DNA of 62,972 nucleotides, the filler included, from Octopus bimaculoides (taxonomy: Eukaryota): assembly GCF_001194135.2 (NCBI RefSeq). It is 6 parts of 6 records of this genome, joined end to end, with 100 filler letters (N's around TTAATTAATTAA, not from the genome) between each part and the next. Parts side by side here need not be neighbours in the genome. Positions count along the whole stretch, not along the records: positions 1 to 6,761 come from NC_068982.1; positions 6,862 to 33,429 come from NC_068998.1; positions 33,530 to 38,397 come from NW_026307601.1; positions 38,498 to 49,774 come from NC_069005.1; positions 49,875 to 61,716 come from NC_068987.1; 1 more part is not named here. The stretch is one strand, 5' to 3'. The notes beneath the pieces were generated by a model. The model did no database searches. It saw only the letters and a program-made list of their open reading frames with translations, and had not been told where the DNA came from. The position numbers were made by a program, and so were the translations under genes. Shown here in pieces: positions 98 to 61,665 of this stretch (its first letter is position 1; each line of letters begins with the position of its first letter).

Positions 98-502
98 ACA
101 TTCACACACAAAAGAGGTGACCCTAACAGGACACCTTACATGATAAAAGGAACAGTTAAAGTCAAACCCACGGTTAAGAGTAATTTCGAAGGGAATGAAA
201 GATAAAAAAACATTTTCAGTAGTTAACACTCGTACCTATTTTTCGAACAATAATGAACAAATAGGATAATTTGTTATCCGTGTTCTTCATCAGCAAGGGC
301 GCTAATAATTAACGTATAATTATGAGACAAATAGAGAGCACATGTCTCACCTTTATACATTGTAATTTTTCAAATCCACCACATTGGAAATGTTTTTATT
401 TTTCGTCACCTTCGAAATTAGTCTAACCGTAGATTGGAATTTGACTGTTTCTTTTAGCATGTAAGATGTCCTGTTAGGATCACCTCTTTTGTGTATGAAT
501 GT
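98..502 (-). mobile_element. Fold-back element (arms 98-215 / 388-502) with a hammerhead-like motif in the spacer; probably Penelope-like-element (PLE) derived
   Basis: Arms of about 117 bp are imperfect reverse complements (e.g. AAAAGAGGTGACCCTAACAGGACACCTTACATG vs CATGTAAGATGTCCTGTTAGGATCACCTCTTTT). The spacer holds a minus-strand CTGATGA...GAAA motif. Confidence 0.6.
229..297 (-). ncRNA. Hammerhead ribozyme-like motif (type I, degenerate stem III)
   Basis: Minus strand reads CTTG-CTGATGA-A-GAACA-[long loop containing a GGATAA/TTATCC hairpin]-TGTTC-GAAA-AATAG-GTA-CGAG. Stems I and II pair; stem III has an A.G mismatch. Confidence 0.5.
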
Positions 503-504
503 GT

Positions 505-642
505 TTGTCCCCCCCACCACCACCACCAACATCGCTTGACAACCAATGTTGGTGTGTTTACGTTCCCGTAACTTAGCGGTTCGGTAAAAGACGCAGCTAG
601 AATAAGTACTAGGCTTACAAAGTATAAGTCCTGGGGTCGATT
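505..642 (+). mobile_element. Octopod tRNA-SINE family A, 3' fragment
   Basis: Matches the CGCTTGACAACC...GTAACTTAGCGGTTCGG...ATAAGTCCTGGGGTCGA body seen in about 10 other copies in the window. Confidence 0.85.
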
Positions 643-692
643 ATATAAAAGAATATATATATATATATTCTTTTACTTGTTTCAGTCATATT

Positions 693-1584
693 CTTTATTT
701 AAGTGAGATATGGACCACTTACAAGCGTCATATAAAAATGCTGGAGAGATTTCATCAAAAGTGCCTCAGACGTATCTTAGGAGTCAAGTAGGAATGTTTC
801 ATACCAGATATAGAAGTTTTGCGCATGGCACTTTGTAACTCAATTGAACAACATGTTATCTTGACTGAAATGAGATGGACTGGACATGTTATTAGAATGA
901 TAGACGAGTGTTTGCCAAAGCGTCTTTTTTATGGTGAGCTGAACTCTGGTTAGCTACTACAACATAAGCCAAGGAAAAGACATAAAGACTGTGTGAAGGA
1001 AAACCTGAAGAAACTAGATATGAATAAAAGTGATTGGGAAAATGATGTTCTAGATCGGAACAAATGGATAGGTGCTGTTAGGACTGGTTGCGATATCTGG
1101 GAAGAAAATATGATTCCGCAATCTGAGCTTAAGGGGAGCTGTGACAAAGGAACAATTGGAACTGTAATCAACAGTGAACAGTGGATATGTATTATATGTG
1201 ACCGTGTTCTGTTATCAAAAGCAGGATACGTGAATCATATGAAGTCACATGAAAATCGTAATGCCCAGATAGGTAATGATCTTGGACACCAACCAACTCT
1301 TACGACTTGTGTCATATGTCAAAAAACTTGTAAGACAATATATGGACTTAAAAGACGTATGCTAGTTCACAAAAACATTCCTTCAGAATCAGATCCCAAA
1401 GGGCAAAGATATAAAAGAAACTTGAATAATATCTGTCACTTGTGTTTAAACTCTGTCATTCAGCATCTGGTCTAAAAAGTCATCGAAGGGCTTATCAACG
1501 GAATGATTGCGCTGTGTGATGGTGTGTGGTGTGTGTATTGATGGGACGGTTATCATCTCTCAGATGAAACAATCATCATCATCA
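693..1584 (+). mobile_element. RTE-clade LINE, 3' remnant (post-RT region with C-terminal C2H2 zinc fingers, (ATC)n tail)
   Basis: The frame from 693 reads LYLSEIWTTYKRHIKMLERFHQKCLRRILGVK*...MRWTGHVIRMIDECLPKRLFYGEL..*..KPRKRHKDCVKENLK, an RTE thumb/C-terminal signature with 2 in-frame stops. It continues with CIICDRVLLSKAGYVNHMKSH and two more decayed fingers, and ends in ATCATCATCATC. Confidence 0.85.
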
Positions 1585-2104
1585 TATATATGTATATATA
1601 TATATATGTATGTATATATATATAGGTGTGTGTGTATATATATAAATGTATGTATGTATAAATATGCATGTATATTTGCGCTTATATTGTTCTATGTATG
1701 TATATGTTATATATATATATATATACTAGCAGTATAACCCGACTTATTACGCCATCTACGATAAGTCTTGCAAGAGAGAGAGAAAGTGATACATACAAAA
1801 TCATAGATTAACTTTGTTTAAGACCTTTTCACTCTTACTTCGTTCTTCTTCCTCTCTCCCATTTAATAGCTTTCTTCTATCCCTCTACCTCTAACATATT
1901 TTTCATAACATAGAAACGTAAAAACACACACAACCACACATACGTGATCTGTGACAACAATATATACATACACACCTCAACATTATAGATATAAGATTTA
2001 GTTTGTGTGTGTTTCTTATATAAACACGCGCACGCATTGCTATTTATAACTGTCTTCCGTTCTCCCTTCTTCTCTTTCTCTCTCTTCATTGCACCCGTTC
2101 TCTA

Positions 2105-58457: not shown

Positions 58458-60587
58458 ACATTGGACTATATTAAAATCTGCAGATTGGTTATCACGTAGA
58501 CTCTTGGACTATATTACGTAGACTATTGCACTCTATTAAAGTCTGCGGATTGGTCATCCCGTAGACTCTTGAAATTATACTTCTTTCACTCTTCTTTCTT
58601 CATCCGCGCCACCTATCGTCTTTCTCATATCATATCTTGCTTATCTACATAATCTCGCCTTGTCTCTATATCTTCTAACACACTCAACTCTTGCACAATC
58701 TCTTTGTTCTCTGCGTATGAACACTTCACTCGTCAAACTATCTCTCTCATCCACTTTGCTCTTGTTATTTATATCATCCGCTAATTTACCCGCAAGTTTC
58801 ATATTGTTATCAATACGTTCATTCTACTTTACCATTCACTTTGTTCTCTCTCTTTCTCTCTCTCTCTCTCTTTCTCTCTCTCTCTCTCTTTCTCTCTCTC
58901 TCTCTCTCTCTCTCTCTCTCTCTATCTATCTATCTATTTATCTATCTATCTATCTCACTCTCTCTTTTTCTCTTGCATTCTCTTTCTATCTGTCTCTGTA
59001 TCCTCCTCTCTCTCTCTATTTCTCAATCTTTCCCTCTTTTTCGTCATTAGATCTACTTTTCCTCTCCTTACAGTTATTGTTCCCTATCGACTTCTAGTTT
59101 TCTACCTTCGATTTTCATCATTTTTACCCCTTTTATGGTCGTCAAGTCGACGCCTGTCCCTTTTTCTCCCTTTTACTTCTCTCTTTCACTTTTTCTCTCT
59201 CTCTTCCTCGGTGTTTTCTCACTCACTTATTCCTTTTCGCTCTTCCTCTCTGTCTCAATCCATTGANNNNNNNNNNNNNNNNNNNNTATATATATATATT
59301 TATATATATATATATATACCTATATGCAGTGAGAGAGTGAAGAAAGAGTAAGAGAGACAGTAAATGACTGAAAGTCTAACACCATCTTTTTAACTATGAT
59401 GAATAACATATATACGTGTATATAAGAGAGACAGAGAGAGAGAGAGAGAGAGAGAGTTTTTTATATTTTTTTAGAAGTGAGTGAACACTTTAAAAATTAT
59501 ATAACGAGATTTAAAATATAAGAAAATACTAGACAAATTTTACGTAAATTAACTTGTTGGATAAAGGTGACATATATATCATTTCTGTAACAACCTGGTT
59601 ACTGAAACCTATATCACTATTAACGTAATTATAGTTCTGCATGATGACATCATCTTTAGATTTTTCAGCAGTTTTAAGATTAAAGGTTATAAGTAATGAT
59701 GGTGAAACTTTAGACCTCTAAGATATGAGATTGTAGAATCGCCACTTGAAAGATTTGTCTTCTTTATGTTATGCTTCTACAAAAGTTTGATAGTGTAGTA
59801 GATTGATTCAGGTTTTCAGAATTCAGCTCTTCAAGCTAAAGACATAACAATTATATATTTCTGCTGCTTACAATAGTAAGTTATGCTACTGATGGTATTT
59901 AGAAGTAGGTGGACCTTGTCACTTGTGAGTTAAATAAAATCGGTTATCTTCGAGAAGCAGGCAAGTTTTCGGCAAATATAAGTCAGAATGAGAATTTTAT
60001 AAATATCACATGAGTAAACGTTAAATAGAAAGTAAGTTTGGATATTGTTGCATTGCTCTAGAATGCTAGATAACATACCAAACTAGGTTTAGTCATAACA
60101 CACACACACACACACACACACACACACACACACACACACACATATATATATATATATATATATATATATATATATATATATATATATATATATATATATG
60201 TATCCACATACATACATTCCATTTGTGTTATGCTTCGAAGAGATGCATGTTGCAAGAATTTTCGATTCTTGTCAAATAGAAAGAACTATTCCAAATTCGT
60301 GTGAGAGAATCCACGTAATGGTTTGGAACTGGTTAGTTTATATTAACATCGACTTGTATAAGTACAATAATGAAATGTATTAACTGGGGAAAGTTTGGTG
60401 TAAGAAATGAATTACCTCTTCTCTACTACGCAATGTTATGAAACGTACGTATTATACGCTTTCAAATTATCATTATTTGTTTTGACTTCCTTATTTATAT
60501 ATATATATATACATACATATACCGGAGTTAGCACATAAATGTGAAACAAGTTGGAAAAAATGGAACTCGAATACCAGAGGTAGAGTA

Positions 60588-60719
60588 ATATGCTTTATTA
60601 AAGAGCAGTAGAAATATCACAAAAAACTGTTACTCAGAGTTTCACGTCCGACGAACGGGAACGTGAAACTCTGAGTAACAGTTTTTATGATATTCCTGCT
60701 GCTTTATAATAAAGTATAT
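60588..60719 (+). mobile_element. Fold-back element (arms 60588-60647 / 60661-60719) centred on a hammerhead-like motif
   Basis: GT-CCGACGA-ACG-GGAA-CGT-GAAAC-TCTGA-GTA-AC spans the spacer and the right arm. Confidence 0.7.
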
Positions 60720-61239
60720 ATATGTACACCCCCGCAACTGTTAAGACCTTGTTTTATGTATGGTATTATCATAAATAAAAGAATAGGTACAAGCCAGACT
60801 TGTGTTGGGATTTCAGCAATCTGTAGTAATGGTCAGATTATGCATTGCTTTTCTGTGTCAGATATATCTAGCTTTTGGTTGTTGAACGTAGCTAGTTTGG
60901 GCAAACGCCTCTTGTCTACGGGTATAATAAATATAAAGAGCAGCTGTGTACATCTGTTTATACATAAAGTGTTTCCTAAAAATCGATAAACGTATTCTGT
61001 ACTACAATAAACTATTGAGACAAAGCACATAGGTCATCATGAAGTTATAAATTTGTGTTCGTAACACAAAAATTAGGTGTCTCTATTTATTATTTCTAGT
61101 GAGAGAACATTACAATAGCACAGTGAGATATTAGAATGAAACAGAAAATATTAATCAAACAGATAAATTTTGGGGAGTATCTTTTCATCCATCTCCCCGA
61201 ATATTTTATGCTTGACACTTAAACTATATTTCTACTATT

Positions 61240-61380
61240 TGTCGCGAGTAGAGTTAGTTGAATACAACGACCCCAGTAGTACTTATTTCATCGACCGCAA
61301 AAGAATAAAAGGAAAAATTAAACCTCAGTATAATTTGAACTCAGAAAGAAATGTCGGATGAAATGCAGCGATGCATTTTC
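61240..61380 (-). mobile_element. tRNA-SINE family B, old
   Basis: CGACCCCAGTAGTACTTATTTCATCGACC...AATTTGAACTCAGAA. Confidence 0.7.
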
Positions 61381-61398
61381 TCTGCTTCATTTTCGTTT

Positions 61399-61665
61399 AT
61401 AAACGAAAATGAAGTAGATTGACAAATTTATTTTTTGAACCAGTGGAAGACACGCAAGATGTCGAAATATTGTTCACGAGATAGCAAATGGCACTCTTCT
61501 TTTAATTTTGACTCTATATCTTCAGGAGGAGTTACCTCAATCCTTTCTATATAAGCGAAAATGAAGTAGATTGGCAAATTTATTTTTTGAACCAGTGGAA
61601 GACACGCAAGATGTCGAAATATTGTTCACAAGATAGCAAATGGCACTCTTCTTTTAATTTTGACT
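61399..61665 (+). repeat. Direct tandem duplication (152-bp period), each copy with a hammerhead-shaped motif
   Basis: TGAAC-CAGTGGA-A-GACA-CGCAAGA-TGTC-GAAA-TATT-GTTCA at 61436-61476 and 61588-61628. Confidence 0.8.

Follow-up and report, generated by a model that had tools for sequence, protein, structure and literature searches.

Penelope-like elements (PLEs) that encode an endonuclease (EN+) leave recognizable insertions, which typically contain an inverted truncated copy and a one-sided tail of 30-40 bp and are biased towards (TA)n targets, as described in the available portions of PMC8557442 and PMC3846280; the latter also describes PLE 5' palindromes and partial tandems. Metazoan minimal hammerhead ribozymes (min-HHRs) are mostly solo, and pairs lie on opposite strands 100-700 bp apart (PMC4209133, in part), while retrozymes are arranged in tandem (portions of PMC7229834 and 10.64898/2026.07.22.740005; reviewed in PMC6765202). 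Penelope-like families of one octopus are listed in PMC13282606, in whose available text the words 'ribozyme' and 'hairpin' are absent, and our literature searches, judged by the listings they gave, turned up no paper that deals with hammerheads in cephalopods or with a clustering of 5' ends at such motifs. Here we analyzed a stretch of Octopus bimaculoides DNA of 62,972 nt including 7827 N (the window), AT-rich and dense in microsatellites, in which a preliminary description had reported hammerhead-shaped motifs and long palindromes. We consider it probable that these elements are old, strongly 5'-truncated 3' ends (pseudo-long terminal repeat plus tail) of several EN+ PLE families, and that the palindromes were made anew at each insertion by head-to-head joining of two short cDNAs, each primed at one end of the cut DNA. 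The motifs and palindromes are most likely new members of the known PLE insertion pattern.

To count the motifs we used a type-I descriptor (CUGANGA..GAAA..UH), which was written after the motifs had been seen and was modelled on features given in the accessible part of PMC4209133. Motifs are anchored by their C3 and H17 positions, a sign before a coordinate gives the strand, and the chance level comes from 60 block dinucleotide shuffles of the window. Five motifs had a perfect core (C3 at -293, +8418, -9048, -57467 and +57487), compared with a mean of 0.20 in the shuffles, none of which (0/60) reached five, so the motif frequency is not that expected by chance. Allowing one core change gave eight matches against 1.23 expected, two or three of them chance-like, and added -15713 and +60648; allowing two added +61441 and +61593, plus three chance-like matches. 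The motifs originally proposed ("about nine") include five perfect-core, two one-change and two two-change motifs. The site at 38219-38242 is matched by no full descriptor and lacks CUGANGA. At best it is a possible hammerhead 3' half (38219..38243, minus strand; 4-bp stem, CGAAA, UA), and a weak one: in a post-hoc test of the 3' half, 165 of 5000 local shuffles passed, or 1.75 expected per window. Overall, the type-I hammerhead core with stems I-III occurs above chance, more weakly at 38219 and in an element at 61381..61669 (element E, below).

Type-III hammerhead descriptors showed no excess over shuffles in the window, the folding z-scores of single motifs were unremarkable (+0.8 to -1.9), and the Rfam hammerhead models, proposed earlier as a check, gave no match among the 150 of 280 rows listed or in four targeted scans. 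To our knowledge, Rfam has no minimal-HHR model. Further CUGANGA sites (for instance 17907, 43185 and 55959) did not satisfy the descriptor; the one at 55959 reads CTGAAGA, has no GAAA and may be a decayed hammerhead, and the CTGATGA within 43185-43290 has no hammerhead fold and is followed by a (CCCTAA)n tract.

The motif-bearing elements fall into seven sequence families by self-BLAST, in line with the at least six unrelated families first suggested. The min-HHR at 229..297 (minus; C3 293, H17 233) has an extra nucleotide ahead of G10.1-C11.1 and an imperfect stem III. The min-HHR at 8414..8461 (plus; C3 8418, H17 8457) has a 7-bp stem II with an extra A on either side, an 8-nt palindromic stem III and a (TA)n tract ~63 nt past the predicted cut. 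Its relative at 15669..15717 (77%; minus; C3 15713) has a U4C core, a TA-rich tract ~57 nt past the predicted cut, and compensatory changes in stem II, where, as read from the two sequences, two double changes leave the stem paired. A type-I HHR at 8996..9056 (minus; C3 9048, H17 9003) has a 5-bp stem I and G10.1-C11.1; no palindrome is found there or at 8414..8461, and a 25-bp direct repeat, an imperfect hairpin, lies on both sides of it (8770-8794 and 9169-9193). At 57432..57522, two perfect-core min-HHRs stand head to head on opposite strands (C3 -57467/+57487; H17 57439/57515), with ATAT as stem III and the 5' strand of stem I mostly lost. The HHR at 60646..60684 (plus; C3 60648, H17 60677) has a U4C core and is truncated within stem I, with 2-nt microhomology. 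Copies end ~57-165 nt past the predicted cut, which places the min-HHR near the 3' end, as in EN+ PLEs. The motifs share with the PLE min-HHRs of PMC4209133 a short stem I, the extra nucleotide between 9 and 10.1, G10.1-C11.1 and a palindromic stem III, as well as their occurrence mostly as solo copies with pairs on opposite strands. The available text of that paper does not mention U4C cores, seen here at 15713 and 60648, the additional A that precedes GAAA in the 8418 family, or a core with two changes like that of E; cleavage of the window motifs is predicted.

All four long palindromes reported previously are real, and their arms are ~84-93% alike. Hairpin A (98..502; arms 98-218/385-502, ~84% alike) has its sense copy on the minus strand, from 384 to 98, and its inverted copy at 385-502; a possible tail runs towards position 1, where the window edge hides its extent. 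Hairpin B (38122..38388; arms 38122-38213/38244-38334; 30-nt loop) and hairpin C (57305..57604; arms 57349-57467/57487-57604; 19-nt spacer) are flanked by (TA)n tracts, and hairpin D (60521..60719; arms 60588-60647/60661-60719) by TA tracts. Each of these three is extended on one side only: B by an AC-rich tail of ~54-59 nt (~38335-38388) that holds an ATG and is open in frame, C by an AC-rich tail of 44 nt (57305-57348) with an ATG, and D by ~67 nt (60521-60587). The tails of B and C both start M-L-Q. Splice-donor-like motifs occur in an arm of B (38272-38329) and of C (57528-57604), and an acceptor-like CAG ends B, before the tail ATG. Compared with microRNA (miRNA) hairpin models, C scores up to 54 bits, under their thresholds. 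Fold prediction suggests that read-through RNA would form a duplex of 57-126 bp, in which the cores of C and D would be locked.

Read in the sense of the motif, the arms stand head to head in A, C and D, and also in B provided that its half-motif is real. The sequence 3' of the motif is duplicated in inverted orientation in all four hairpins, as originally noted, and the duplicate sometimes includes the motif. The claim that the motif lies at or next to the turn-around point holds for 57487, 60648 and the half-motif 38219, but not for hairpin A, where a 166-nt loop encloses the motif and 91 nt separate C3 from the junction. Three of the six independent motif loci fall inside 10 hand-listed inverted repeats that make up 3.4% of the sequence (p=0.0007).

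Half of the listed local inverted repeats (5/10) are motif-free, and an inverted repeat adjoining hairpin C (57628-57781) is TA-flanked and looks like a miniature inverted-repeat transposable element (MITE); further inverted repeats without the full motif lie at 55806-56039, 35577-35684 and 11833-11920. One may therefore ask whether the palindromes are ordinary terminal-inverted-repeat (TIR) MITEs and the motifs chance occurrences. The palindromes do resemble TIR MITEs in being short inverted-repeat elements, often TA-flanked, but their ends are asymmetric (tails of B, C and D), their centres differ between copies (varied junctions of D) and the motifs exceed the shuffles. This explanation is contradicted for C and D, and we regard it as very improbable.

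The variation between copies was seen in relatives of D. Contigs of three organisms (labelled A, B and C) were aligned to 60300-61666 at 80% likeness, as was 6% of a single RNA (cDNA) run. Summed depth was 2-5 x 10^5 over D and 1-8 x 10^5 over E, against a single-copy depth of 27, and D reached ~1.6-2 x 10^4 times its single-copy flank; these depths are not copy numbers. D and E are very high-copy families. A loose end occurs before 60646 in 250, 220 and 115 contigs. Since its consensus restores a stem I of 8 bp, D represents a family hammerhead truncated inside stem I with 2-nt microhomology. The right arm of D and its flank are also present in organisms B and C, and the insertion is therefore old. 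In the rows listed (15 out of 105 for joints and 12 out of 49 for between-rows), D relatives show at least eight distinct skip-type junctions, none shared, each resting on one or two contigs near single-copy depth; seven 'opposite strands' joints were ambiguous and were excluded from this count. Because the junctions differ, the hairpins were likely rebuilt at each insertion. Five of the eight restart at -2..+6 from C3, and the other three ~20 nt beyond the predicted cut.

The RNA data do not support the earlier idea that the hairpins are a source of double-stranded RNA in the transcriptome. In this subset of one run, no RNA reads fell on the unique flanks of D, RNA over D was seen at family level only (5 of 4019 aligned reads at least 99% alike), and reads showed no begin or end pile-ups, although a cDNA run is not a cleavage assay. 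No RNA joints were found among the rows listed at this low depth, and libraries of this type may fail to retain small circles. A-to-I editing, also suggested for inspection, was not significant: in RNA and DNA of a single organism, A>G plus T>C places numbered 39/107 and 18/76, respectively (p=0.076), and they are not assignable to any element, the reads being mostly short interspersed element (SINE).

For a larger sample, we matched a pattern with the geometry of C against metagenomes, which gave at least 117 loci, and took full flanks for 80. Family T, which comes from another animal and is selected for an intact core, accounted for 79 of 122 matches among those listed. Duplicate T insertions were removed by hand and the tandem L023 was omitted, which left at least 53 independent insertions with two 3' ends, at ~+83 and +165-179. 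Of 46 sense 5' ends, to which the intact-core selection applies, 27 fall within -25..0, and their distribution has a step near -22. Among the matches listed, T has 19 head-to-head pairs, of which 14 combine a long with a short arm and none combines two long arms. The inverted partners start at -25..0 in 10/19; for those not pattern-selected, 11/16 start at -25..+15 from C3, 1/16 near the cut and 2/16 well 3' of it. Overlaps of 1-7 nt occur in 9/19 pairs, target duplications of 9-12 bp in 4/19 and candidates of 6-7 bp in two more. Ten of the loci (L010, L024, L050, L057, L070, L072, L079, L100, L110 and L116) represent one T hairpin insertion amplified within repeated host context, whose inverted arm begins at the cut (+34). 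Two other loci, L041/L043, contain decayed reverse transcriptase (RT) and GIY-YIG frames (profile independent E-value 3e-25) between 77% inverted repeats with the same motif geometry; this PLE is a different family from the window elements, and Pfam gave no match on L043 fragments. Exact-pattern scans for the window's own families found no match in viral contigs, metagenomes or the retrieved loci.

These junctions allowed us to assess the mechanism first proposed, in which a single cDNA snaps back at the cut site, prompted by self-cleavage or by the ribozyme hairpin. Both arms of C start at C3, and those of D at -2 and +13 from it. One arm of B starts within stem II and the other 8 nt 3' of the predicted cut, and one arm of A starts 91 nt before C3 and the other 15 nt 3' of the predicted cut. 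None of these eight starts, and only 1 of the 19 T partners, lies within 4 nt of the predicted cut, so mapping the breakpoints against H17 does not show the cleavage site setting the turn-around. The tail-less arm extends further 5' in two of the four window hairpins (B and D) and in 8 of the 14 long-short T pairs. In these cases simple snap-back is contradicted, because one cDNA copied back on itself could not give rise to such an arm. In addition, catalytic hammerhead mutants left insertion in vitro unchanged (PMC11167929, in part), and the begins and ends of RNA reads in the one run do not pile up. Some observations would fit snap-back: turn-arounds coincide with motifs above chance, in A and in B one arm begins 3' of the cut, by 15 and 8 nt respectively, a T pair starts at +34, and self-priming, proposed in the available text of PMC3846280, may account for the 38-bp palindrome of E. 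On balance we find snap-back unlikely.

A mechanism with two cDNAs is easier to reconcile with the junctions. According to the portion of PMC11167929 at hand, PLE protein nicks and extends both strands, uncleaved RNA is the main template, and two internal sites, ~85-130 nt 3' of the cut, serve as starts of reverse transcription and define the tail. Two short cDNAs would thus be primed, one from each cut DNA end. One arm would come from the far start site, which gives the tail, and the other from the near site. Both cDNAs would stop near the 5' edge of the ribozyme, either at the RNA 5' end or at a stall, and would then be joined head to head via microhomology. The hammerhead would be a passenger of the terminal repeat, with a cut site that does not set the turn. 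In the window, in D relatives and in family T, the 5' ends cluster at the hammerhead, over its 5' edge and its body.

This clustering could have another cause. The stubs might be SINE-like, self-propagating PLE parasites: solo copies would give rise to RNAs of 100-190 nt that start 15-20 nt before the core and are copied whole in trans by Penelope protein from both ends of a cut, in tens of thousands of copies that seed fresh long hairpins, and the 5' ends would mark the transcription start. The 27 of 46 T sense ends at -25..0 with their step near -22, the depth of D relative to its single-copy flank (again not a copy number) and the absence of a visible reading frame in it are compatible with this scenario, as is an initiator-like TCATT 15 nt before C3 in T and 18 nt before it in D. 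The TCATT was spotted post hoc in AT-rich DNA, however, the ends are scattered over ~35 nt, and RNA reads on D are family-level only. In Drosophila virilis the start precedes helix I by ~120 nt (46 nt and an intron of 75 nt; PMC4209133 and PMC2377424, in part), and short cDNAs reaching the 5' end of a full-length PLE mRNA would yield identical ends. We therefore regard this scenario as a possibility worth some weight, but a doubtful one.

The assignment to PLEs, including the earlier suggestion of PLE terminal remnants, is supported by the one-sided tails, the (TA)n targets, the min-HHR features and the variable junctions. The elements share with EN+ PLE insertions (Penelope/Poseidon, Neptune and Nematis, in the available literature) arms joined head to head, a tail confined to one of them, targets in microsatellites, 5' palindromes and partial tandems. 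They differ from them in having arms of only 60-120 bp, no reading frame and some extensions longer than 30-40 bp. The 5' ends at the ribozyme 5' edge are a feature found here and are unstated in the examined text of PMC8557442 and PMC3846280. Because the window has no PLE reading frame, the link to PLEs is architectural, and membership is to that extent putative.

Several points weigh against two-cDNA insertion by EN+ PLEs. No PLE protein remnant was found in the window by Pfam on 260 frames, by tblastn or by a 100-protein PLE profile dominated by close relatives of a single insect-type element, which agrees with the initial statement that no RT or GIY-YIG frame is visible; the only coding remnants are long interspersed element (LINE) and mariner fragments. 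Beside family T, profile and tblastn searches likewise gave no convincing PLE frame; T, moreover, belongs to another animal, and its copies were chosen for an intact core. Target-site duplications, expected at about 8-12 bp for EN+ PLEs, are masked by the (TA)n flanks in the window. The extensions of B and D exceed the published 30-40 bp, and the variety of junctions was examined in D only. Finally, the arms of A and B that start 8-15 nt 3' of the cut could also be explained by cleaved, trimmed RNA.

Element E differs in structure. A 38-bp palindrome occupies its left end and is followed by a 152-bp unit that is partly repeated in tandem (97%), and its relatives read through the unit junction at high depth. 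On the plus strand it has two copies of a type-I-shaped motif (61436-61476 and 61588-61628; C3 61441 and 61593), each with two core changes. On the minus strand, a type-II-shaped motif with a perfect core (61514..61552; C3 61525), absent from the preliminary description, spans the tandem junction; we consider it weak to moderate. Its 10.1-11.1 pair is U-A, its stem II is TATA and its stem III is only 1 bp long. Its strict form occurred in 1/150 shuffles and a relaxed form in 11/150.

E could accordingly be a separate, retrozyme-like tandem unit with ribozymes on both strands, like viroid-type RNA. The read-through relatives, the variant type-I shape and the perfect-core motif on the other strand favour this, while the core changes, the poor stems of the minus motif, its frequency under relaxed matching and the low RNA depth over E (~4-86 per bin in one run) do not; moreover, partial tandems and 5' palindromes are ordinary in PLEs (PMC3846280, in part). 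We judge it quite improbable. More generally, the window elements resemble metazoan non-LTR retrozymes, as far as these are described in the available texts, in being non-coding and PLE-derived with a type-I HHR, and E does so in its tandem unit as well. They differ in that A-D are inverted and non-tandem, the motifs are minimal rather than canonical, and no abundant RNA was seen. A retrozyme would be expected to show tandem 150-450-bp units with an intact type-I HHR, so the term retrozyme-like, used previously for these elements, would apply at most to E and not to A-D.

The window contains other features of interest. Inverted repeats of 34 bp (94%) surround a TTAGGG-like array at 2456-2722. 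A 307-bp segment occurs twice with 100% identity (16672-16978 and 22493-22799), possibly as an assembly effect. We also found a tRNA at 36840-36911 (plus strand, 68 bits), a degenerate U6 copy at 11674-11766 (minus strand, 67 bits) and, at 954-1472, 22665-23144 and 9831-10473, LINE-type zinc-finger and RVT_1 fragments and Tc1/mariner transposase fragments.

For annotation, our results imply that many short palindromes of this animal are likely Penelope debris, open to mislabelling by MITE and miRNA finders. If transcribed, the predicted 57-126-bp duplexes would be potential editing substrates. What retains interest is the pile-up of ends at the hammerhead 5' edge. This clustering and the pairing of long with short arms are genomic readouts of the as yet unsolved cycle by which PLEs insert, and any good assembly would allow either to be tested.

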